NCBI GenBank assembly: GCA_038045945.1
Contig: JBBSXC010000001.1
Coordinates: 52,592-116,591, forward strand
Source: Nanobdellota archaeon
GTDB lineage: Archaea > Nanobdellota > Nanobdellia > Pacearchaeales > GW2011-AR1
Reading direction: 5' to 3'
Length of the DNA: 64,000 bases
The position numbers were made by a program, and so were the translations under genes. Positions 1,630 to 59,126 of this stretch are shown in pieces (within the stretch, counting starts at the first letter, position 1; every line of letters starts with the position of its first letter). The notes under the pieces were generated by a model. It saw nothing but the letters and a program-made list of their open reading frames with translations, made no database searches and had not been told where the DNA came from.

Positions 1630-1952
1630 GAAAATTTCCCTCTTCTAATTTTCAGGATGTCGAAATGTACACATTTCTTAATCATAAATTTATTGTAATA
1701 CTTCCCCATATAAACCTTTTTATGTCAAGAAGATTGTTTTTTTATTATCATAAATTTTTTATGCAGAACTTTAAAAGTTTGTAATCAGAACTTTTATATA
1801 CTAGTTATGCTATAATGTATTATGTTAGTTATAAGACAGCTTACAACAATGAATTCTATTAAGGCTGGCTGTGCTTATGATAATATTAAGTGCTTCTACT
1901 GAAGAGCTCTTAATAAATAACTAAAAATTTCTTAAGAAACATCTTCCAAAAC

Positions 1953-7812: not shown

Positions 7813-8847
7813 CTAATAGTATTTTAGAAGCATTACTTTTCTTACTTCTTCCATAGTTTTGCTTGCTTCCTCCCTTGCTTTTTCTCCTCCTTCTCTTAGT
7901 ACTGTCTCTATTGTTTTGTCTGATATGCTGTCAAACCTGTTTCTGTATTCTTTGTATGTTGTTGACATTAATGGTGGTAGTTTTTGTTTGCATTCTCCAC
8001 ATCCTAGTATTGCTTGCCTACAACCGTAGTATACTTCAGCGAATTTTTCTTGGTTGTATATTCTGTGAAGGTCGTAAACGCTGCATTCGTCTGGGTTTCC
8101 TGCGACTTGCATACTTGTTCTTTTTGGGTCTATTCTCATCTTTGCAACTTTTTCTGATAATGTTTTTCCTGTGTCTTGTGGGCTTATCGTGTTTGCGTAA
8201 CTCTTTGACATTTTTCTTCCGTCTGTTCCTAGTATTCTTGGCGCGTTACTTGTCAGTATTTCTGGTACTGGGAATATTGGTCCGTATGTTGCGTTGAATC
8301 TTTTTGCTAATTCTTGGCATAGTTCTATGTGTGGTTTTTGGTCGTCTCCTACAGGTACATATTTTGCTTTGTGTACTAGTATGTCTGCTGCTTGTAATAA
8401 TGGGTATCCTAAAAACCCGTAACTTACTTGGTCTGCTTCTAATTTTTTTCTGTTATGTCCTTCTTCTTTCATTATTTGTACGTATTCTGTGAATGTTGGC
8501 ATTCTCTGAAGTCTTGCTACTGTGTTTAGCATTGATAACGCTACGTGTAACTCTGCGTGTTGTGGTACGTCTGATTGTACAAATATTGTTGATTTTTTTG
8601 GGTCTATTCCGAAAGCTAACCAGTCACGAACCATGTCATAAGTGTTTTTTCTTATTTCTTTTGATTCTGTGTTTGTTGTTAGTGCGTGCCAGTCTGCTAC
8701 GAAGAATTTGCATGCGTATTCTTCTTGTAATTGTAACCATTTTCTTAATACTCCTTCTATGTGCCCTATGTGTAGTCTTCCTGTTGGTCTCATCCCGGAT
8801 AATACTGTAGGTTTTAATTCATCATTAGTTTTTTCTTCTAAACTCAT
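7813..8847 (-). CDS. trpS: tryptophanyl-tRNA synthetase, bacterial type, with C-terminal Cys cluster
   Basis: LSGMRPTGRLHIGH (HIGH), GIDPKKSTIFVQS (near-identical to E. coli GIDPEKSTIFVQS), KMSKS; C-x20-C-x6-C-x2-C near C-terminus resembles [4Fe-4S] TrpRS motif. Confidence 0.9.
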   Translation of the reverse strand: MSLEEKTNDELKPTVLSGMRPTGRLHIGHIEGVLRKWLQLQEEYACKFFVADWHALTTNTESKEIRKNTYDMVRDWLAFGIDPKKSTIFVQSDVPQHAELHVALSMLNTVARLQRMPTFTEYVQIMKEEGHNRKKLEADQVSYGFLGYPLLQAADILVHKAKYVPVGDDQKPHIELCQELAKRFNATYGPIFPVPEILTSNAPRILGTDGRKMSKSYANTISPQDTGKTLSEKVAKMRIDPKRTSMQVAGNPDECSVYDLHRIYNQEKFAEVYYGCRQAILGCGECKQKLPPLMSTTYKEYRNRFDSISDKTIETVLREGGEKAREEASKTMEEVRKVMLLKYY

Positions 8848-21897: not shown

Positions 21898-24135
21898 ATG
21901 AAAGAAATAAGAGGTGGTAAAGTACTTTTGGGTTTTTTGTTAATAATTGTTTTCTTATTTTCCTTATTTCTTTTTGCTAATAATGGTTCTTATTCTGGTT
22001 TAGCTGTTTATAATTTTGGCCCTTTTGATGATAGTAATAGTTTTGGTCTTTGGACTTCTAGTGGTTCTAGTATGGACGGTTCTTACTCTATTGACAATCA
22101 AGTTTTTTCTGGTGGTACTGGTAGTTTGAAGGGTTCTACAGCCGGTCATAATAAGTCTTTTGTTGGCGTTACTCTTAGTCAGAAGCTTTCTCCTAATATG
22201 ACTCAGAATGGTGAATACCTCAATTTTTATTGGCGTAAGTCTTATCAGAATTCTTTATCTGTTACTAATAATATGTCTATTATTCTTTTAAGACCTGATA
22301 ATAGTAAGGTTGTTTTGTGGAATGATTTGTCTAATAATTATGATTCTTGGTCTGGTGAATCTGTTCAGATTAATTCTTTTAATCAACAGGGGGATTATTA
22401 TCTGGTTTTGGGTTGTGATTTGAAAACTGGTGAACTTTCTGATAATTCTTCTTCTACTTCTTGTTATTTTGATGAGGTAGTTATTGATACTCAGGGGAGT
22501 CCTTCTTCGCCCATTAGCCCTTTCTTTTATTCTTATCAGCAAACTCCTTCTAGTGGTGTTTCTTATAATGTTTCTACGGTTTATGATTTTAGGGTTTCTG
22601 TTTCTAATTCTGATGGTAAACCTTGGATTGATTTGGATAGTGCTAATAGGAGTCTTTCTCAAGTTTCTGGTAATACTTATCGTTTATTGGCCAGTAATTT
22701 GAGTGCTGGTACGCATTCTTTTTATTATTGGAGTTGGAATAATGGCGGTATTGCTAGTAGAGCTAGGAATTCTTCTCCTGTTATGACTTATCAGGTAACT
22801 AAAGGTTTTGGGGAGCTTAAGACTATTATTAATGGTTATAGGGGCGATTACACTGTTTCTAACAACACTGTTATTTGTTTTTCTGTTATTGCTCCAGATT
22901 CTGCTGATGGTTTGAGAACTATTTCTGTTAATGGTAAGTTGTTTGGTAAGCACGATAGTAACTTTCAGAATTGTACTTCTTTCTCTACCCCTCAGGTTGT
23001 TAATATTAGTTCTTATTGGGATGGCGGTACTAACTACTTTTCTGATTCTGAGTCATGGCAACTTAGAGTTATTAAGGAGTCTGAAATAGTTAATTATAAT
23101 GAGACTGTGATTAAGGTTCTTTCACCTTTCAATATAGATTATTCTTCTGATACTAAATTTTTAGATTTCTCTCTTGTTTCTAATACTGATCTTCGTGAGT
23201 GTCGTTATTCCTTAAACGGTTTAGAATCAGTACTTATGGATAAGGCTAATGGTACTTCTTTCTCTAAAAACGTTATTACAACTCCTGGCTCTCACCAATT
23301 GTTCTTTATATGTAAGGATAATCTTGGTACTGTTTTTAATGTTCAACCAGTTATTAATTTTAATGTTAAGGATCAGCCTAAAGTTGGTGTTATTAAGTCT
23401 AATTTGAATTTTTCTTCAGTTAATGATTCTTGTACTCCTTCTTGGAAGTGTTCAGAGTGGTCTGATTGTTCTGCTGTTTCTTATGATCCTAGTGAAATAA
23501 TTAGTGGTAAGATTGATGTTAGGGGTGAGCAGAGGAGGATTTGTTATGATACTACTATTTGTAAGAATGCGGTTATTGAGAAGCAGGTTTGTGATGTTAG
23601 GATCCCTGTTAGGGCTGAGGCTAAGTTTTGGTGTGAACAAAACTATATTGAGATTTATGATTTAGTTACTAACCAGTTAGTTAGTAGGATTAAGGAGAGG
23701 GATATTGGCAATACTAAGACTGCTGATATTGGTTTTGTTATGAGTGAATTTGGTGATTATTGTGATTATTGTTATAATGATGCTCGTGATTTTGATGAAG
23801 CTGGTATTGATTGTGGTGGTAAAAATTGTCCTGCTTGTTACAATAAGAGTTCGCAGAAGGCTCTTTCTTCTAATGCTTTAAGGTTTTCTTTAACTATTAT
23901 TGAAGTTTTAGTTTTGGGTAGCATTATTTCTTACTTGTTTTATTGGTTGATTGTTAAAAGGTTGTGGGCTGGTGAAGAGTCTGAAGAGTTGGTTAGTCCT
24001 GCGATGTCGCTTGTTAAGCAGGCTATGAAGAGGGGTTATTCTAAGGACCAAATTTATGAATTGTTCAAGAAGAAGGGTTGGAAGGATAGGGATATTGATC
24101 AGTTAATAAGGGAATCGCAAAAAAAGTTTGATTAA
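21898..24135 (+). CDS. large cell-surface protein (signal/TM anchor, Cys-rich region, C-terminal TM and cytoplasmic tail)
   Basis: N-terminal hydrophobic helix, S/T/N-rich extracellular repeats, Cys-rich segment, TM LTIIEVLVLGSIISYLFYWLIV. Confidence 0.6.
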   Translation: MKEIRGGKVLLGFLLIIVFLFSLFLFANNGSYSGLAVYNFGPFDDSNSFGLWTSSGSSMDGSYSIDNQVFSGGTGSLKGSTAGHNKSFVGVTLSQKLSPNMTQNGEYLNFYWRKSYQNSLSVTNNMSIILLRPDNSKVVLWNDLSNNYDSWSGESVQINSFNQQGDYYLVLGCDLKTGELSDNSSSTSCYFDEVVIDTQGSPSSPISPFFYSYQQTPSSGVSYNVSTVYDFRVSVSNSDGKPWIDLDSANRSLSQVSGNTYRLLASNLSAGTHSFYYWSWNNGGIASRARNSSPVMTYQVTKGFGELKTIINGYRGDYTVSNNTVICFSVIAPDSADGLRTISVNGKLFGKHDSNFQNCTSFSTPQVVNISSYWDGGTNYFSDSESWQLRVIKESEIVNYNETVIKVLSPFNIDYSSDTKFLDFSLVSNTDLRECRYSLNGLESVLMDKANGTSFSKNVITTPGSHQLFFICKDNLGTVFNVQPVINFNVKDQPKVGVIKSNLNFSSVNDSCTPSWKCSEWSDCSAVSYDPSEIISGKIDVRGEQRRICYDTTICKNAVIEKQVCDVRIPVRAEAKFWCEQNYIEIYDLVTNQLVSRIKERDIGNTKTADIGFVMSEFGDYCDYCYNDARDFDEAGIDCGGKNCPACYNKSSQKALSSNALRFSLTIIEVLVLGSIISYLFYWLIVKRLWAGEESEELVSPAMSLVKQAMKRGYSKDQIYELFKKKGWKDRDIDQLIRESQKKFD

Positions 24136-29976: not shown

Positions 29977-30969
29977 TTATCTCTTAGTTTCAACACTATC
30001 AAAGAGAGCACTCAAACTATCACCCTTAATTGTTCTGTAAATAGCTTCACCAAATAATGGAATCAGAGATATGGTTTCAAGATTGGGACTTCCACTGTTT
30101 ACTAGGGTATCAGAAACAAATAGTTTGTCTAGTGTAGAAAATCTTTCTAGTCCTGCGCTGAATAGTCCGTGAGTTCCATAAGCATAAACGCTTTTAGCCC
30201 CATTCTCTCTCAAAGATGCTTCAGTCATGGCTATAGTCCCACCAGTATCAATCATGTCATCAACAATTAGACAATTCCTGTCTTTAACATCACCTATTAT
30301 TACAACTTTATCAACAACATTATCTTTAAGTCTAATTTTGTCACCTATAGCAACATTCACTTCTAGACCGCTGGCCCTTAGCCTCTTAGCAAGACTTCTA
30401 ACTCTTTTAGCCCCACCCATGTCCGGTGAAACAACAGCTAAATCCTCAAAAATTAATGGGTGTTTACTTCCCAGATAATCGATTAGTGTTGGAAAAGAAT
30501 AAAGATTATCAAAAGGAATATCAAAAAATCCTTGCATTGCAGGGTTATGAAGATCAACGGTCATTGCTCTGTCAGCATAAGTAGAGATCATCTTAGCAAG
30601 AGCTTTAGCATTAACACTAACCCTACTTTCATCCTTTCTTTCTTGACGAGCGAAACGAGTATAAGGAAGAACAACATTTATTTCTTCAGGCGAAGAGAAC
30701 TTTAGTGCATCAAGGACAAAGTTAAGTTCTGTGTACCAGTCTGATGGGGACTTGTTAGAATCATGAATTAGATAACATTGCCTTCTGCGAACGTTCTTAG
30801 CAATACGAAGTTTGAATTCTCCATCCTTAAAGTCTTCTCTTTTGACAGTGACTAAGTCTACCTCAAAATCTCTTTTTGGCTTATATAGAAGGTGATTATA
30901 AACACCGATAGCAAAATCGTAACCTTTACTGTTAGGATCGGCAATTATTGCAGCATCACCATTTTCCAT
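29977..30969 (-). CDS. prs: ribose-phosphate pyrophosphokinase (PRPP synthetase)
   Basis: N-terminal Prs domain, PRPP-binding loop VIIGDVKDRNCLIVDDMIDTGGTI. Confidence 0.85.
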   Translation of the reverse strand: MENGDAAIIADPNSKGYDFAIGVYNHLLYKPKRDFEVDLVTVKREDFKDGEFKLRIAKNVRRRQCYLIHDSNKSPSDWYTELNFVLDALKFSSPEEINVVLPYTRFARQERKDESRVSVNAKALAKMISTYADRAMTVDLHNPAMQGFFDIPFDNLYSFPTLIDYLGSKHPLIFEDLAVVSPDMGGAKRVRSLAKRLRASGLEVNVAIGDKIRLKDNVVDKVVIIGDVKDRNCLIVDDMIDTGGTIAMTEASLRENGAKSVYAYGTHGLFSAGLERFSTLDKLFVSDTLVNSGSPNLETISLIPLFGEAIYRTIKGDSLSALFDSVETKR

Positions 30970-31140
30970 AAAATCTTTTGCCGTGTTAGCTATTTAAGGA
31001 TTATTGGTATAGAAAAATAAATGTATGATTATGAAAACACGGTGCATCTTATATAAATAACTGCTTTCTTTCTCCGTGAAAAGCGGAATGCTTTTTTTTT
31101 TGTTTGAATATGAAATTCTTTGCTGTAATTAACTTCTAAA

Positions 31141-31266
31141 TCAAGCTTGTACCATATTTTAGAATGGTTTGCTTTCTAGTTAATAATTCTGCAAAGAATC
31201 ATTTTTGCTTTTAGGATAAGCGGCTATATCAAGTTTGTACCCTGTTTTAGAAGGGTTTACTTTCTA
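31141..31266. repeat. two paralogous ~40-nt repeats (31141..31181 and 31220..31266), each containing a 5-bp hairpin with compensatory changes
   Basis: tcaagcttgtaccatattttagaatggtttgctttctag vs tcaagtttgtaccctgttttagaagggtttactttctag; stem accat/atggt becomes accct/agggt. Confidence 0.6.
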
Positions 31267-31802
31267 GCTTATCACTTAAAGCTTCAAGAATGTTAATTCT
31301 TGAGACCCAAAAATCTTATAGATTTTTGAGTTTTTTTTTATCAAGTCGAGTTGATTATTATTTTAAGAATTCTTTATGAGGACTTCTTTGTTAACTTTTA
31401 GATATAGAAAATCTTTCTTATCCTTACTGTATAAATTATTTGTCCTAGAATTCTTGTCTGAAATCTAACTTTTCTTTACTTCTTATCTAAGTACCAGTAG
31501 TACTTAAACTTATCTATTGATCACCCTTTACCATCTTTTTGCCACCCTCAATCCTCTAATTACTCAGATTTGTATTGGTGAAAGTGAAAGGTGATGATCT
31601 TTTGATTATAAAACCCTGGAAGAGGCTTTTATGCACTTAAATTAGGTTGCACTAAGCCTCTTCTGGGTAAAAAGAGGTGATATAATATGTAGGCAAAAGA
31701 CCTATTTAAACCTTTCGATATTGTTATCATTACACAATGACAATATCTGCTCTTTATTTTTGACCCGTGGGTTTATAATATTTGTTTGTTTGTGTTTTAT
31801 TG

Positions 31803-32780
31803 ATGGATGATCAGCCCAAAATTGAGGTGAATAAAGTAGAGGTGAGTAGTACTGTTCTTGATAGTATGAATCAGGACGAGGTTTACGGTCTTCTTCTTGA
31901 TAATGAGGTTGGTTGGCAGGCTATTCTTTATGATTTGATTAATACTGAGCGGCTTGATCCTTGGAATCTTGATCTTGTTGCTCTTACTCAGAAGTATTTG
32001 GAGAAGGTTAGGATTCTTGAGGAGGCTAACTTCTTTATTTCTTCTAATATTATTCTTGCTGCTTCTTTGCTTCTTAGGATTAAGTCTGAGATTCTTCTTG
32101 ACCATTATATTCCTTCTCTTGATGCTATTCTTTATGGTAAGAAGGATGAGGAGAAGAAGTCTTTGGAGAGGATTCATATTGATGAGTCGCAGCTTCCTTT
32201 GATTTATCCTAGGAGTCCTATGCCTAGGAACCGTCAGGTTACTCTTTCTGAGCTTGTTAGTGCTCTTTCTCATGCTATTAAGACTGAGAATAGGCGTATT
32301 CGTAAGGAGCTTATTATTAGGTCTGCTAGGCGTGAAACTGATATTGTTTTTCCTAAGATGAAGATTCGTATTCAGGATCGTATTAGGCAGATTTATGCTA
32401 AGATTCTTTCTAAATTCCAACAAAAGAAGGAGCGTATTCCTTATTCTGATATTGCTTCTGGTCGTGAGGATCGTATTGCTGGTTTTTTGCCTGTTCTTCA
32501 TCTTGATAACCAACAGAAGGTTTTTTTGCAGCAGGAGGCTCATTATGAGGAGATTTATGTTTGGGTTTACAAGCATTATAAGGAATTGAATCCTCATGTT
32601 GTTTCTGCCGAATTAGAAGAGGTTGATTCTTCTGAGATTGCTAATCACGAGCAACTTGAAAATTTTGATGCTCAGGAGCAGGAAATTATTGATGAACTAA
32701 ACAAGTCTAGCAAGCTTTCTGATAAGACTGGTTTTGATAATCCTTTAGGTAATTTGCTTAGTGAATCGGGTGCAGAATAA
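31803..32780 (+). CDS. scpA: segregation and condensation protein A (ScpA, kleisin)
   Basis: ERLDPWNLDLVALTQKYLE N-terminal ScpA motif; ATG at 31803 (ORF track starts at TTG 31782). Confidence 0.75.
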   Translation: MDDQPKIEVNKVEVSSTVLDSMNQDEVYGLLLDNEVGWQAILYDLINTERLDPWNLDLVALTQKYLEKVRILEEANFFISSNIILAASLLLRIKSEILLDHYIPSLDAILYGKKDEEKKSLERIHIDESQLPLIYPRSPMPRNRQVTLSELVSALSHAIKTENRRIRKELIIRSARRETDIVFPKMKIRIQDRIRQIYAKILSKFQQKKERIPYSDIASGREDRIAGFLPVLHLDNQQKVFLQQEAHYEEIYVWVYKHYKELNPHVVSAELEEVDSSEIANHEQLENFDAQEQEIIDELNKSSKLSDKTGFDNPLGNLLSESGAE

Positions 32781-37903: not shown

Positions 37904-38041
37904 TGAGCCTATGCGGATTTGAACCGCAGACCTCCGGCTTTCTTAGCACGTATATGCCACTAAAGCATTAGTTCGCTCAAGTTGCTTGAGAGAACAACGT
38001 CTTATAAGACCGGCGTTCTAACCGGGCTGAACTATAGGCTC
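37904..38041 (-). tRNA. tRNA-Ile (anticodon TAT = UAU) containing a ~63-nt intron at the canonical 37/38 position
   Basis: acceptor GAGCCTA/TAGGCTC (perfect), D-arm GTTC-AGCCCGGTTA-GAAC, anticodon stem CCGGT...GCCGG with loop CTTATAA interrupted after position 37, T-arm TGCGG-TTCAAAT-CCGCA. Confidence 0.7.
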
Positions 38042-44002: not shown

Positions 44003-45145
44003 ATGACTGTTTTTATGGTAAAGGGTGAATCAATGAAGGTTACTCCTTATGAAGCAAAAGGGGAAATAGACTATGATCAATTAGTAAAACAGTTCGGTGT
44101 TGAGAGGATTGATCAAGATTTAATGAAGAGGATAGAAAAGAAGGCAGGTGAGCTACATTTCATGCTTCGCAGAGGAGTCTTTTTTGCGCATAGAGACTTA
44201 AAATTTGTACTTGAAGAGTACGATAAGGGAAACAAGTTTTATCTTTACACTGGGAGAGCTCCAAGTGGACCAATACATTTAGGGCATCTACAACCTTGGA
44301 TTTTTACTAAGTGGTTACAGGATACTTTTGGTGTAGAGTTATGGTTTCAATTCCCTGATGAAGAAAAATTTTTGTTTAAACCAGAGATGAGTTTTGAGGA
44401 TGGACAAAAATATCTTAATGATAATATGTTGGACATTATAGCTTTAGGTTTTGATCCTAAAAAGACTCACTTCTTGATAGATACTAAGCATGCAAATGCT
44501 ATGTACAAAGAAGCATGTAAAGTAGCAAAAAAGATTACTTTTAACATGGTAAGGTCATCATTCGGATTTGATGAAAGTGATAATATAGGATTAATATTTT
44601 ACACTAGTATGCAAGCTGTTCCAGCATTTTTGCCTTCGGTAATCGCAAAAAAGAATATTCCTTGTTTGATTCCTCACGCAGTTGACCAAGACGTCCACTT
44701 TAGGTTAACTAGGGATATTTTGCCAAAACTAGGTTATTATAAACCTGCAAGTATTCAATGCGTATTTTTGCCGCCTTTACAGGGGGTTGCTGGAAAGATG
44801 AGTTCATCACAAAGCAGTGAAGCAATACTAACTACTGATACACCAAAGGAAGTTGAGCGTAAGATTAACAGGTACGCTTTTAGTGGGGGAAGAGATACCA
44901 TTGAGGAGCATCGTAAACTTGGAGGAAATCCTGATGTTGATGTTTCTTACCAATATTTGAGGATGCTATTAGAAGATGATGATAAGAAACTAAAAAAGAT
45001 TCATGATGATTATAAGAGTGGAAAGATGACAACAGGCGAATTAAAGAAATATACTATTGATAAAATTAATTCTTTTTTAGCAGTTCATCAAAAGAAGCGC
45101 GAAGAAGCAAAAAAGGTTGTTGACAAATTTATTTGGAAAGAATGA
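44003..45145 (+). CDS. trpS: tryptophanyl-tRNA synthetase, archaeal/eukaryotic type
   Basis: YLYTGRAPSGPIHLGHLQPWIFTKWLQDTFGVELWFQFPDEEKF and AFSGGRDTIEEHRKLGGNPDVDVSYQYL are near-collinear with human WARS catalytic core; KMSSS. Confidence 0.9.
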   Translation: MTVFMVKGESMKVTPYEAKGEIDYDQLVKQFGVERIDQDLMKRIEKKAGELHFMLRRGVFFAHRDLKFVLEEYDKGNKFYLYTGRAPSGPIHLGHLQPWIFTKWLQDTFGVELWFQFPDEEKFLFKPEMSFEDGQKYLNDNMLDIIALGFDPKKTHFLIDTKHANAMYKEACKVAKKITFNMVRSSFGFDESDNIGLIFYTSMQAVPAFLPSVIAKKNIPCLIPHAVDQDVHFRLTRDILPKLGYYKPASIQCVFLPPLQGVAGKMSSSQSSEAILTTDTPKEVERKINRYAFSGGRDTIEEHRKLGGNPDVDVSYQYLRMLLEDDDKKLKKIHDDYKSGKMTTGELKKYTIDKINSFLAVHQKKREEAKKVVDKFIWKE

Positions 45146-53412: not shown

Positions 53413-54687
53413 ATGGAAAGAAAAATGATTAGCGATTTGAAGGAGGGCGAGCATTCTTTGATTAAGGGTTGGGTTCATGAAATTCGTGATTTGTCTAAGA
53501 TGAAGTTTATTCTACTTAGGGATTCTTCGGGTATTGTCCAGTGCATTATTAAGGATGATAAGTTGATGAAGGATTCTTCTAGCATTAGTTTGGAGAGCGT
53601 TATTGAGATTGAAGGAGCGGTGAATAAGGCTTCTGTTAAGGCTGATCTTGCTCGTAAAGATGTTGAACTTCATGCTAAGTCTATTAAGATTCTTAGTTTG
53701 GCTGAAACTTTACCTATTCAAGTTAATGAAAAAACAATAACTACTGAATTACCAACAAGGCTTGATCATCGTTCTTTAGATGTTAGGAAGCCTAAAATTT
53801 CAGCTATTTTTAAGATTCAGAGTGAAATAGCTAATTCTTTCAGAAAGTTTTTTTATAAGAATGGTTTTACTGAGATTCAACCACCTTTTATTATTGGAGC
53901 AGCAAGCGAGGGTGGAAGTGAAGTTTTTGAGGTTAAATATTTTGATAAGAAGGCTTACTTAGCTCAAAGTCCTCAATTGTATAAACAAATGATGGCTTGT
54001 GCTTTTGAGAAAGTTTTTGCTTTAGGCCCTGCTTGGAGAGCAGAGAAGCATAATACTACTAGACACATTAATGAGATAAGGCAAATGGATGTAGAAGTAG
54101 CCTTCACCGACCAAATGCAAATAATGAAGTTGCAAGAGGAGGTTTTACAATTCATAATTCAGAACGTTAAAGAAAGATGTTCAAGAGAACTAGAAATATT
54201 GGGAAGAAGTGATATAAAAGCTCCTAAGGGTGTATACTTACATTATGAGGATGCTATTAAGAAGTCTGGTGGAAAAATTGGTGAGGATTTTACTCCTGAA
54301 CAGGAAAGGAAGCTTTGTGACATGTACCCTGGGGACATAGTGTTTACTCATTCTTGGCCTACAAGCATTAAAGTTTTTTATATAATGCCTAAGGATGGTA
54401 AGAAGAATGCTACTGAAAGTTGTGGTTTTGATTCTTTGTATGGCGGCGTTGAGATTTCTAGTGGTGGTCAACGTATTCACATTCCAGAATTATTAATTGA
54501 TAGGATTAAAGCTAAGGGTTTGAACCCTAAAGATTTTAAAACTTATATTGATAGTTTCCGTTACGGTGCTCCACCTCATAGCGGTTGGGCTTTAGGTCTT
54601 GAAAGACTTACCCAAATGATTTGCGGTCTTGATAATATTAAAGAAGCAACATTATTCCCTAGAGACAGGGATAGGTTGACACCTTAG
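53413..54687 (+). CDS. aspS: aspartyl-tRNA synthetase, archaeal type
   Basis: OB-fold N-terminus, class IIb motifs FRAEKHNTTRHINE, GGVEISSGGQRIH, C-terminal FPRDRDRLTP. Confidence 0.85.
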   Translation: MERKMISDLKEGEHSLIKGWVHEIRDLSKMKFILLRDSSGIVQCIIKDDKLMKDSSSISLESVIEIEGAVNKASVKADLARKDVELHAKSIKILSLAETLPIQVNEKTITTELPTRLDHRSLDVRKPKISAIFKIQSEIANSFRKFFYKNGFTEIQPPFIIGAASEGGSEVFEVKYFDKKAYLAQSPQLYKQMMACAFEKVFALGPAWRAEKHNTTRHINEIRQMDVEVAFTDQMQIMKLQEEVLQFIIQNVKERCSRELEILGRSDIKAPKGVYLHYEDAIKKSGGKIGEDFTPEQERKLCDMYPGDIVFTHSWPTSIKVFYIMPKDGKKNATESCGFDSLYGGVEISSGGQRIHIPELLIDRIKAKGLNPKDFKTYIDSFRYGAPPHSGWALGLERLTQMICGLDNIKEATLFPRDRDRLTP

Positions 54688-54691
54688 AACC

Positions 54692-56026
54692 ATGGTTAAA
54701 AAAGTAGAAAAAGTTTCTGTTGATACTCACAGCGAATCATTCATTAGTATTTCTGATGCTATCAAGCAAGGTTCTGGTCGTGTTTCTATTAGAGGTTGGG
54801 TTTATCGTGAGAGGGATGGAAAAGAATTAAGATTCATAGTCCTAAGAGACTCAAGTAATATAATACAGTGCGTGTTGAAAAAGGAAAAGTTTGAAAAACA
54901 ATGGGGAGAGATAAGTAAAATAGGAATTGAAAGCTCACTAGAAATAGTTGGGGAAATAAAAGCAGACGCTCGAGCACCAACAGGTTACGAAATATCAGCA
55001 GAAAAAATAATAATAGTGCAAATAGCTGAGGATTTCCCCATTAACAAAGATTTGAACGAGGAGTTGCTTGGAGACAGAAGGCATTTGTGGCTTCGTAGTA
55101 GAAAGATGACTTCTATTATGAAGATTAGAAGCAGGTATATACAGGCTAGAGAAGCATTCTTTCATAAAGAGGGATTTTATCGTTTTGATACTCCTATACT
55201 TCAACCAACACAAAGCGAAGGTGGAAGTACAGTTTTTGAAGTAAAATATTATGATAAAAAAACGTTTTTAGCCCAAACATGGCAGTTATACGGCGAATCA
55301 GCAATTTTCGCTCTTGAAAAAGTTTACAATATGGGTCCAACTTTCAGGGCTGAGAAGAGTAATACTTCAAGACATTTATCTGAATTTTGGATGGCAGAAG
55401 TAGAAGTGGCCTGGTGGGGTCTTAAAGAAATATCTGAGTTTGCAAAAAAAGAATTAAAACATTGTATAAGCATAGTGGTAAAAGAATGTGAGGAAGAGTT
55501 TAAGATATTAGGAGTGGATGCAAAAAAATTGTTAGAGATGACAAAGAAAGAGTGGCCTACAATTAAGTATCGTGATGCACTAAAATTAATAAAAGAAAAA
55601 GATGGGATGACAGTACCGTTCGGCAAGGATTTAAGGACAATTGAAGAACAAACAATAATGAAACATTTTGATACTCCTGTTGTTGTTACTCATTATCCTA
55701 AAGAAATAATGGCTTTTTATAAGCCGAGTGACCCAAAAAGTCCTGATGAAGCATTATGCTTTGATATGTTAGCTCCACAGATAGGCATAGAGATAGTTGG
55801 AGGAAGCCAAAGAGACTTGAATGTTGAGGAGATGTCAAAAAAACTAAAAGCTGATGGTGAAGACCCAAAAAATTATCAGTTTTATTTTGATACTAGGAAG
55901 TATGGAAGTGTGCCTCATTCAGGATACGGAGTAGGAATCGAGAGGGTAATACAGTGGATTTGTGGTCTTGAAAGTATTAAGGATGCTATTGCCTTCCCTA
56001 GGACTATGAATAGGACAACTCCTTAA
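54692..56026 (+). CDS. asnS: asparaginyl-tRNA synthetase
   Basis: FRAEKSNTSRHLSEFWMAEVEVAW (AsnRS-specific SNTSRHL.EFWM), C-terminal FPRTMNRTTP. Confidence 0.85.
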   Translation: MVKKVEKVSVDTHSESFISISDAIKQGSGRVSIRGWVYRERDGKELRFIVLRDSSNIIQCVLKKEKFEKQWGEISKIGIESSLEIVGEIKADARAPTGYEISAEKIIIVQIAEDFPINKDLNEELLGDRRHLWLRSRKMTSIMKIRSRYIQAREAFFHKEGFYRFDTPILQPTQSEGGSTVFEVKYYDKKTFLAQTWQLYGESAIFALEKVYNMGPTFRAEKSNTSRHLSEFWMAEVEVAWWGLKEISEFAKKELKHCISIVVKECEEEFKILGVDAKKLLEMTKKEWPTIKYRDALKLIKEKDGMTVPFGKDLRTIEEQTIMKHFDTPVVVTHYPKEIMAFYKPSDPKSPDEALCFDMLAPQIGIEIVGGSQRDLNVEEMSKKLKADGEDPKNYQFYFDTRKYGSVPHSGYGVGIERVIQWICGLESIKDAIAFPRTMNRTTP

Positions 56027-58052: not shown

Positions 58053-59126
58053 ATGTTAAATTTTGCGGAAGAGGCGATTAAGAATTCTGCTGCTTACAGC
58101 ATCAACTTTGATGAACTTAAAGCCGGAAAAGCCAATATCAAGGTTTTCGGTTGTGGTGGAGCTGGTTGTAATATGATTACATGGCTCTTCAATAAGGGTA
58201 TCAATGGTGCTACTGTTTATGGTTTGAACACTGATGCACTTCACCTTAGTATTACTAAGGCTGATGAAAAAATCTTAATAGGTAAGGAACTTACTAGAGG
58301 TCTTGGATGTGGTGGTTTTCCTGCTAAAGGAAGAGAAGCTGCTAAAGAGTCAATCTCTGATATTAAGAAGGGTGTTAGTGGTGCAGACATGGTCTTCGTT
58401 CTTGCTGGTATGGGTGGAGGTACAGGTACTGGTTCAGCACCTGTTGTTGCTCAACTTGCTAAGGAAGCTGGCTCAGTAGTTATTGGTGTTGTCACTATGC
58501 CTTGGGAGATGGAGAAGGCTAGAATTGACAAAGCAGAATTTGGACTTCAGGAGCTTAGAGATGCAACGGACACTACAATTGTCCTTGACAATAACAGGCT
58601 TACTGATATTGCTGGTAATTTGCCTATTGAGCAAGCATTCGCTGTTGCTAATGAACTGGTTAGTACAATGATTAAGGGAATAGTGGAAACTATTACTCTC
58701 CCATCATTAATCAACCTGGACTATGCAGACGTTTCGGCCATCATGAAGGGTGGTGACGTTGCTGTCATTGGTATTGGTGAAAGCGACACTCAGAATAGAG
58801 TAGATGAAGCTGTTCGTCAAGCATTGACTCACCCATTACTGGATGTTGACTATAGGGGCGCTACTGGTGCTCTTGTTCACATTAGTGGTGGTACTGACTT
58901 AAAGCTTGAAGAATTTAGTAATATTGGTATGTTAGTTACTGAAAACCTTTCACCAGATGCTCAAGTGATCATCGGTGCGAGAATCAACAAGGATTTTGCA
59001 GGTAAAGTAAGAGTTATTACCATCATGACTGGTGTTAAGAGCCCTTATGTTCTTGGCAAACAAAGAACTAACTCCTATGAGTCTAGCTCAGAGATGTCAG
59101 AGCTTGGAATAGAGGTTTTAAGATAA
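58053..59126 (+). CDS. ftsZ: cell division GTPase FtsZ
   Basis: [11 protein letters not shown], tubulin signature GGGTGTG, T7 loop; GGAGGA Shine-Dalgarno 14 nt upstream of ATG 58053 (ORF track extends to 57999). Confidence 0.9.

Follow-up and report, generated by a model that had tools for sequence, protein, structure and literature searches.

A candidate small regulatory RNA gene divergent from scpA in a Nanobdellota archaeon

What may be encoded by a long stretch of DNA that holds no evident gene is the question raised by the gap between the divergent genes prs and scpA in a Nanobdellota archaeon. The stretch analysed here, referred to as the window, comprises 64,000 nucleotides (nt) of contig JBBSXC010000001.1 (positions 52,592 to 116,591), and its host is a low-GC (~34%) DPANN archaeon from groundwater. 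The gap occupies window positions 30970-31781. At 812 nt it is the longest in the window by crude mapping of open reading frames (ORFs) and tRNAs, the runner-up having 323 nt, and an ORF scan found no ORF of at least 34 amino acids (aa) inside it. On its left lies prs (29977-30969, minus strand) and on its right scpA (plus strand), whose real start, taken from the called gene and its homologues, is the ATG at 31803. The original prediction, made from the sequence alone, had described just such a non-coding gap of about 800 nt, the longest of the window, and had proposed that it holds one or more small structured RNAs or a replication or partition site.

The answer favoured here, and considered reasonably probable, is that the gap is a compound regulatory region whose conserved core, a small RNA gene in its own right, lies divergent from scpA on the minus strand; its product would base-pair with the scpA mRNA. 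The RNA family is a new one, yet of a familiar regulatory-RNA kind, and it is put forward as a candidate. The expectation of a small structured RNA is supported at the stem-loop, where a novel candidate is present in 12/12 loci. The minus strand, the tie to scpA and the hairpin, rather than the repeats, as the conserved unit had escaped the original prediction.

The conserved element upstream of scpA

The comparison covers 12 distinct genomes with enough DNA upstream of scpA, together with one incomplete contig. The prs protein was a poor synteny handle and ScpA was used in its place. The ScpA homologues are 48-82% identical, and most of the useful loci (designated by L numbers) were traced through exact-protein look-ups of them. 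A metagenome scan with ScpA, which gave only five loci, added to these, and two ScpA loci were left out as their contigs end too near scpA. The 12 genomes are related, and the statistics carry no phylogenetic correction.

The gene order (PIN, rpoE′, spt4, S24e,) S27ae, a variable slot, the gap, scpA, (a small gene,) hisS is widely kept. In the window, the conserved cluster PIN, rpoE′, spt4, S24e and S27ae lies to the left of prs, and hisS to the right of scpA. What occupies the variable slot differs: the window and L087 have prs there, L084 has nothing, and L095, L096, L098, L100 and the P0003 contig have unrelated genes. Being empty in one relative and filled with unrelated genes in others, this place between S27ae and the small RNA has the look of a hot spot for insertions. 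In the related loci a non-coding gap of 250-970 nt is always found ahead of scpA, and in the distant relatives that were read (L096, L097 and L093) it holds just the small RNA and promoters. The linkage of the small RNA to scpA is kept while its neighbour on the other side varies freely.

A search with window positions 31596-31760 found the same element of ~150 nt upstream of scpA in every locus with enough upstream DNA. A profile built from nine loci recovered it in the three that had been kept out of the building, L098, L099 and L100 (E values 1e-30 to 8e-22). The small RNA is divergent from scpA, in the same relative orientation, in 12/12 loci, and neither the window nor any related locus has more than one copy of the element. 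True matches reach 70-94 bits, and 1.0 Mb of unrelated DNA yields nothing above 19 bits. The scans of viral contigs gave no match to the small RNA, and the family is absent from Rfam.

Read on the minus strand, the 12-sequence alignment consists of well-defined blocks. A promoter with a transcription factor B recognition element and TATA box (BRE/TATA), CGAAAGGTTTAAATAG (31702-31717), has a mean column identity of 0.93 across the 12 genomes and is followed by a variable spacer of 21-24 nt with a mean identity of 0.52. The identity rises to 0.97 in the tail block (U)AUCACCUCUUUUU, in which the 13 positions of the 5′ tail AUCACCUCUUUUU (31669-31681), the presumed seed and transcript start, are invariant in 12/12 genomes. 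In the hairpin body (31613-31668) it is 0.82-0.85 in the arms and 0.54 in the apical part, and in the U-tract UUUUAUAAU (31604-31612), which directly follows the hairpin as the presumed 3′ end or terminator, it is 0.80, falling to 0.47 beyond. This order fits an archaeal BRE/TATA promoter, a non-conserved spacer, a transcript and a terminator, and the promoter-like and terminator-like motifs stand at the correct spacing. The purine-rich side of the TATA core (CGAAAGG) is conserved in the minus orientation only, and the other side varies. The tRNA genes of the window have similar TATA boxes 24-28 nt ahead of the mature 5′ end, a spacing that fits a start of the small RNA at or just before the A of AUCACC (~31681). 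UUUUAU-type tracts follow the hairpin in 12/12 homologues and are short in L090, L093 and L091. From these motifs we infer a gene of ~75 nt on the minus strand, which would run from ~31681 to 31605. Two features of base-pairing small RNAs (sRNAs) are therefore found in the element, namely a promoter of its own at the correct distance, at motif level, and a terminal hairpin with a U-tract, in 12/12 homologues.

The stem-loop at 31613-31668 had already been noticed as a strong one of 14 bp, and its strength withstands comparison with shuffles, the fold having −29.0 kcal/mol on the plus strand (z −5.0) and −25.3 kcal/mol on the minus strand (z −4.7). It consists of a 4-bp base, a 1×2 internal loop, a 10-bp stem, a covarying apical stem of 4-7 bp and a U-rich loop of 11-13 nt. 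The apical loop carries a second CU/U-rich motif, such as CCUAAUUUAAG, CUCUUUUAC or CCUCUUUAUUC. The hairpin forms in all 12 homologues, at −24 to −32 kcal/mol, with a U-rich end behind it. Nine of the 12 minimum-free-energy folds leave the tail entirely unpaired, and in L097, L099 and L100 a few of its bases pair with the 3′ end.

The helix is conserved through compensatory changes. In an alignment fitted to R1, the covariance model of the small RNA, 88% of the helix cells are paired and 11 of the 19 pairs show two-sided changes (34 cells). The covariation score is 0.448, compared with 0.206 ± 0.026 for shuffles, none of 500 of which reaches 0.448, and with at most 0.147 for slid partners. 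The apical stem is wholly swapped between lineages, the arms being UGCA/UGCA, GGCA/UGCC, CACAA/UUGUG, UUAGC/GCUAA, UUCAGCA/UGCUGAA and GCC/GGC.

Folding with RNAalifold on homologous regions, a check suggested along with the original prediction, gives the long helix on either strand, and the strand is told by the kind of pairs. On the minus strand the helix columns hold 145 Watson-Crick pairs, 15 G-U and 1 A-C, which on the plus strand become 15 A-C and 1 G-U. The plus strand is G+T-rich, a composition that would bias the count of G-U and A-C the opposite way. Since 15 G-U stand against 1 A-C despite this contrary composition, the helix is concluded to be selected as a minus-strand RNA, and the count agrees with the orientation of the promoter.

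The same count bears on a very improbable alternative, in which the element would belong to a 5′ leader of scpA transcribed from the plus strand. In that case the invariant AAAAAGAGGUGAU and the hairpin would act as an attenuator or in a riboswitch-like manner, with the 3′ arm CCUCUU sequestering a GAGG that resembles a Shine-Dalgarno (SD) sequence. The element does always lie upstream of scpA in a fixed orientation, GAGGTGAT resembles an SD sequence, CCUCUU and AAGAGG can pair, and a TATA-like ATTATAAAA lies ahead of the hairpin. However, the helix on the plus strand contains the 15 A-C mismatches and 1 G-U, both TATA boxes in plus orientation would start transcription within hairpin loops, and neither a conserved start codon nor a conserved ORF follows the SD-like motif. 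Furthermore, scpA has its own TATA box ~23 nt before the ATG, and SD use is rare in this genome. A plus-strand helix AGAGGU/ACCUUU, also given by RNAalifold, was rejected, being invariant, devoid of covariation and broken in L091. A type I toxin-antitoxin system was likewise discarded: in the window and L087 the SD-like GAGGTGAT is followed by an ATG with a stop right behind it, the other genomes lack a start codon there, and no conserved ORF follows in the window and its relatives.

The choice between RNA and DNA is informed by the same substitutions. A DNA-level element, either an origin with ORB-like repeats or a site for SMC/ScpA loading (partition), with the repeats as protein sites, is considered the least probable of the explanations weighed and close to negligible. 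The setting would suit it, as this is the longest AT-rich gap, it lies beside a chromosome-segregation gene and it contains inverted repeats. In addition, a 17-mer, ATTATAAAACCCTGGAA, is repeated in two relatives and AAGAGGTGA-like boxes recur three times. Against it, the substitutions in the helix follow RNA pairing rules on one strand only, and in more distant relatives the gap is reduced to the small RNA and promoters. Pfam scans of 20 ORFs of at least 280 aa and the annotated neighbours revealed no Orc1/Cdc6 and no AAA/Cdc6_C domain, three of the scanned ORFs having no Pfam family at all. The cumulative GC skew of the window has no extremum at 31 kb. Judged by the commonly known ORB consensus, the gap has only one inverted pair, and its changes obey RNA pairing on one strand. 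The replication or partition site put forward earlier is thus contradicted by the strand-asymmetric helix changes, by the lack of Orc1/Cdc6 in the scanned ORFs and by the missing turn of the skew.

Known RNA families do not account for the element. A cmscan of the whole window against Rfam at gathering thresholds gave only 7 tRNAs, and at E≤10 positions 30900-31900 gave four noise matches (two miRNA families, one snoRNA family and rliG), far below gathering. The models of signal recognition particle (SRP) RNA, RNase P RNA, C/D and H/ACA RNAs, which had been named as candidates or for checking, do not match even at E≤10. The geometry of an H/ACA guide is not found either, since the internal loops of the small RNA are 1×2 and ~2×4 nt instead of pocket sides of 5-9 nt. 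In the small hairpin of the left part of the gap, described below, the loop has only 4 nt on its 3′ side, and both the small RNA and this hairpin lack GA/AG tandem pairs and a conserved ACA.

Some observations concern the surroundings of the small RNA. On the minus strand, the 17-mer ATTATAAAACCCTGGAA represents its 3′ arm and U-tract; it is repeated in L084 and L095, not in the window. The second copy lies 60-70 nt past the end of the RNA (~3743-3759 in L084 and ~2795-2811 in L095); it might serve as a spare terminator or have been left by a tandem duplication. In L095, positions 1684-1741 (minus strand), between S27ae and an inserted gene of 301 aa, match the promoter-plus-box part of the profile a second time, though weakly (E 0.0018). 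Beyond the 3′ end of the RNA, window positions 31519-31570 are CU-rich on the plus strand, as is the same position in L087, L084 and L095, and contain the anti-SD-like motifs AUCACCCUUU, CCAUCUUUUU, CCACCCUC and CCUCU.

Complementarity to the start of the scpA mRNA

The start of the scpA mRNA can be approached through promoter spacing. The TATA box TTTATAAT (31772-31779, plus strand) lies 23 nt before the ATG of scpA, and in the related loci that were read a TATA-like box stands ~20-25 nt ahead of it. On the other side of the gap, a TATA-like box TTAAATAG (30990-30997, minus strand), recognised by its spacing only, lies 21 nt upstream of the prs ATG (30969), and L087 has the same arrangement. 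Because the TATA boxes are only 21-23 nt before each ATG, the spacing implies that the prs and scpA mRNAs are leaderless. SD use is rare, GGTG being found upstream of ~5% of crude gene starts in the window. Together, the spacing and the rarity of SD sequences suggest that the mRNAs of the window are mostly leaderless.

The tail of the small RNA points to a class of targets. Its first 8 nt, AUCACCUC, are identical to what we take to be the 3′ end of the 16S rRNA (the anti-SD, ...GAUCACCUCCU), the rRNA of the host lying outside the window. Because of this identity the tail should recognise SD-like purine tracts. The tail is complementary to the start of the scpA mRNA (positions −5 to +34) in 12/12 genomes, with −9.8 to −12.8 kcal/mol, so that the conserved, mostly single-stranded seed of the small RNA has a complementary site at the start of its presumed target in every genome of the set, with no correction for phylogeny. 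Other gene starts of the same loci have a mean of −7.5 kcal/mol, and 16% of them reach −9.8 kcal/mol; the difference from scpA has a Mann-Whitney p of ~1e-6, likewise uncorrected. In the window, the best predicted site is UAGAGGUGAG in codons 12-15 of scpA (31836-31845, plus strand; RNAduplex −12.8 kcal/mol), and a second similar one is predicted at 31819-31830.

Within the window the scpA site ranks 2nd of 74 gene starts for pairing with the tail. The best complementarity belongs to an ORF of 745 aa without a Pfam family (21898-24135; −14.1 kcal/mol at +10), and ftsZ (58053-59126) comes 4th with −12.1 kcal/mol at +13.

The scpA sites fall in an N-terminal extension in which neither the peptide sequence nor the length is conserved (KVEVS, KKEV, EEEA, KEEGE, PEEV, LKGDE, MEEE and others). 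The recurrence of AAGAGG is unexplained by a protein motif, because the peptides of this extension are not conserved. The complementarity of the tail to the scpA start in 12 genomes points to a putative translational masking of scpA, and the constant divergent linkage to scpA beside a varying other neighbour points the same way.

On this basis the small RNA probably acts as a base-pairing regulator, and its action may be pictured in a few steps. The BRE/TATA promoter (31717→31702) would direct transcription to start at ~31681. The transcript of ~75 nt would expose the unpaired 13-nt 5′ tail AUCACCUCUUUUU, continue into the hairpin (31668→31613) with the CU/U-rich motif in its apical loop, and end at the U-tract GGGUUUUAUAAU (~31605). 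The CU-rich tail would pair with the purine-rich AAGAGG(U/G) in the first ~15 codons (~45 nt) of the leaderless scpA mRNA, and possibly with a few other mRNAs. Such pairing may hinder the access of ribosomes or alter the stability of the mRNA, as in archaeal sRNAs that mask ribosome-binding sites (RBSs).

Several points weigh against a small RNA that acts on scpA. As to the RNA itself, the transcript and its ends are deduced from motifs alone; the TATA core (TTTAAA) is palindromic and hence compatible with firing on the plus strand, and the U-tract is short, some genomes having 2-4 U immediately behind the stem. The alignment used for the covariation had been fitted to the model, and the relatedness of the 12 genomes means that the statistics overstate independence. 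As to the target, purine-rich codons for Lys and Glu are common near N-termini, as seen in the 16% of other genes that reach the scpA threshold, and one gene of the window outscores scpA. An invariant tail offers no covariation between tail and target. Finally, the left module of the gap, with its paralogous hairpins, falls outside the small RNA model.

Part of these points feed an alternative that appears somewhat unlikely, in which the small RNA is real and scpA is not its target. The two genes would simply share a divergent promoter region, and the tail would act on other SD-like mRNAs or the RNA would bind a protein, such as an Sm-like one, by means of its U-rich loop and its tail. The 745-aa ORF (−14.1) and ftsZ (−12.1), which score as well as or better than scpA, would be consistent with this, as would the 16% of unrelated gene starts that reach the scpA threshold and the U-rich nature of both the loop and the 3′ tail of the small RNA. 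What speaks for scpA, by contrast, is that a site near the start occurs in every one of the 12 scpA genes despite unrelated N-terminal peptides, and that the small RNA stays linked to scpA whichever gene lies on its other side.

A broader idea, improbable at present, extends pairing with scpA to a general role. The RNA would be an anti-SD mimic which competes with ribosomes for purine tracts inside leaderless mRNAs of segregation and division genes (scpA and possibly ftsZ), and the pair of hairpins in the left module, which have the same UUUUAG loop, would serve as a sponge or partner. If this were true, the handling of the chromosome would be coupled to translational capacity in a minimal DPANN cell.

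Paralogous hairpins and other features of the gap

The left module of the gap (31110-31339) contains the repeats on which the original prediction had centred, and their description there was accurate. Two repeats of about 40 nt and ~80% identity had been claimed; they lie at 31136-31184 and 31224-31272, on the same strand and ~88 nt apart, and are 84% identical over 49 nt. A degenerate 40-mer consensus finds only these two sites in the 64 kb, 0 being expected from shuffles. In the fold of each repeat a small internal loop separates a 4-bp helix from a 5-bp stem, which is capped by a loop of 8 nt. The paired substitutions that had been pointed out in the stems (ACCAT/ATGGT and ACCCT/AGGGT in the DNA) are present, the stems ACCAU/AUGGU and ACCCU/AGGGU differing on both sides. 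The small hairpins noted after each repeat, GCAAA..TTTGC (31191-31208) and CAAGAAT-GTTA-ATTCTTG (31286-31303), both exist.

The repeats are enclosed in larger folds. The long hairpin H1 (31110-31202), with outer arms ATGAAATTCTTTGC and GCAAAGAATCAT, encloses repeat copy 1 (31131-31186), and its arms are identical in L084. The long hairpin H2 (31207-31283), with the lower stem GATAAGC/GCTTATC, encloses copy 2 (31219-31274), and its orthologues in L084 and L087 show compensatory changes in the 4-bp and 5-bp stems. Two more hairpins (31286-31303 and 31305-31331) and a T9 run (31331-31339) follow; this stretch (31286-31339) is terminator-like for a plus-strand transcript and is absent from L084. 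The fold of the 246-nt left stretch as a whole is much more stable than those of shuffles, with z −4.9 on the plus strand and −7.2 on the minus strand.

Orthologous copies of the repeat are found in L084 (two) and L087 (one), making five copies in three genomes, all in this gap. Over the five copies 97.7% of the cells are paired and 4 of the 9 pairs change on both sides, while the flanks AAAUCAAG and CUUUMUAGCU and the loop NUUUUAGA remain constant. A loose regular-expression search for the small hairpin gave noise and was replaced by a covariance model, R2, which scores the five copies at 66-77 bits (copy 1 at 76.9 and copy 2 at 76.2) and anything else in the window or the related loci at 16 bits or less. 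The repeats are a real structured, covarying element seen at this locus only, and only in the closest relatives; the conserved hairpin that had been proposed is therefore real in structure and narrow in range. The left module is probably RNA too, and its counts of G-U against A-C favour neither strand. Readings of the small hairpin as a bulge-helix-bulge, a kink-turn, a C/D element or a tRNA arm were set aside by eye for misfitting geometry.

Little probability is given to the view that the paralogous hairpins are remnants of mobile elements (IS200/IS605-type ends, miniature inverted-repeat transposable elements (MITE) or repetitive extragenic palindromic (REP)-like sequences) which arrived with a horizontally acquired prs. 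Two similar hairpins on one strand ~88 nt apart might recall such elements, the inserted genes between S27ae and the small RNA differ from genome to genome, and prs is of bacterial type. Yet the window and the related loci contain no further copies, no transposase lies nearby, and the hairpins are present in L084, which has no prs, their position being syntenic in three genomes. A scan of viral contigs for the flank pattern of the small hairpin gave chance matches only, none of the first 80 contigs listed scoring above 23 bits. Dispersed repeats of the REP, MITE and IS200/IS605 kinds are also at odds with R2, which finds only 5 copies in one intergenic slot.

The bacterial type of prs is deduced from its relatives. 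The closest genome matches of the protein are two Woesearchaeota contigs (metagenome-assembled genomes, Candidatus), neither of them syntenic, and outside these the best are Acidobacteriota and Gemmatimonadota at ~38-43% identity; prs is considered bacterial-type because these remaining best relatives are bacterial.

Other structures of the gap are less well supported. The imperfect long inverted repeat that had been described at 31519-31598 is present and does no better than shuffles (z −1.7 on plus and −2.3 on minus). Only its inner part is shared with L087, where the outer arms are lost, and it is absent from other relatives; comparison therefore favours neither a structure nor a paralogue of the small RNA. 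The sequence TTTTGTTAY..AATGACAA (31717-31747), a conserved box situated between the two divergent promoters, forms in the window a palindrome with 11-bp arms. It is palindromic only in close relatives, and over 13 sequences 73% of its cells are paired with one compensatory change, so that a conserved hairpin is weakly supported. The box is more likely a protein or transcription-factor site (operator) or the 5′ end of an alternative plus-strand transcript. Near prs, a terminator scan revealed a small G+C hairpin followed by a T10 run (31073-31101, plus strand), which is terminator-like and not conserved in relatives.

Elsewhere in the window, a tRNA match at 37904-38041 spans 138 nt and is probably an intron-bearing gene. 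Two adjacent paralogues of class II (D/K/N-type) aminoacyl-tRNA synthetases lie at 53413-54687 and 54692-56026, and two class Ib (Trp/Tyr-type) synthetases at 7813-8847 and 44003-45145.

Significance and comparison with known systems

DPANN organisms cannot be cultured alone, and full-text literature searches found no description of regulatory small RNAs in DPANN or Woesearchaeota. The 13-nt tail does not vary across genomes whose ScpA is only ~50% identical, and it always lies beside the kleisin gene scpA. Through this element, the post-transcriptional control of chromosome segregation in reduced cells may become open to concrete tests, and the covariance model of the small RNA could join RNA family databases and help annotate Woesearchaeales-type genomes. 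On the conservative reading alone, the archaeal sRNAs would gain one further family.

Among archaeal sRNAs, sRNA41 of Methanosarcina mazei has been proposed to mask RBSs (PMC5867862), and sRNA162 of the same organism is reported to target one cis-encoded and one trans-encoded mRNA (PMC3510493). The putative RNA described here resembles both: it is small and intergenic, has a promoter of its own and carries pyrimidine-rich single-stranded sequence complementary to purine-rich, SD-like start sequences. The proposal of an RNA acting on the adjacent scpA has a parallel in sRNA162, which is reported to act on a neighbouring, cis-encoded target too (PMC3510493). In contrast, there is no similarity of sequence or structure to either RNA, Rfam finds nothing and the host is a DPANN archaeon. 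Moreover, the presumed target is leaderless, and the pairing would lie inside the first codons instead of an RBS in a 5′ untranslated region.

A different parallel is offered by the architecture of bacterial sRNAs with C/U-rich seeds and an intrinsic terminator as their 3′ end, for example those of the RsaE/RoxS type. In these, as in the RNA proposed here, a CU-rich seed is left unpaired, another CU-rich motif lies in a loop, and U residues come after a strong hairpin at the 3′ end. The RNA of the archaeon differs from them in the domain of life, in its archaeal BRE/TATA promoter, in the lack of homology and in a seed that equals the 16S 3′ end over 8 nt. Unlike the 3′ end of the 16S rRNA, which follows helix 45, the tail would open a 75-nt RNA and be followed by a hairpin, and there is otherwise no rRNA similarity; with the 3′ end of that rRNA it would have in common the recognition of the same purine-rich sequences as the ribosome.

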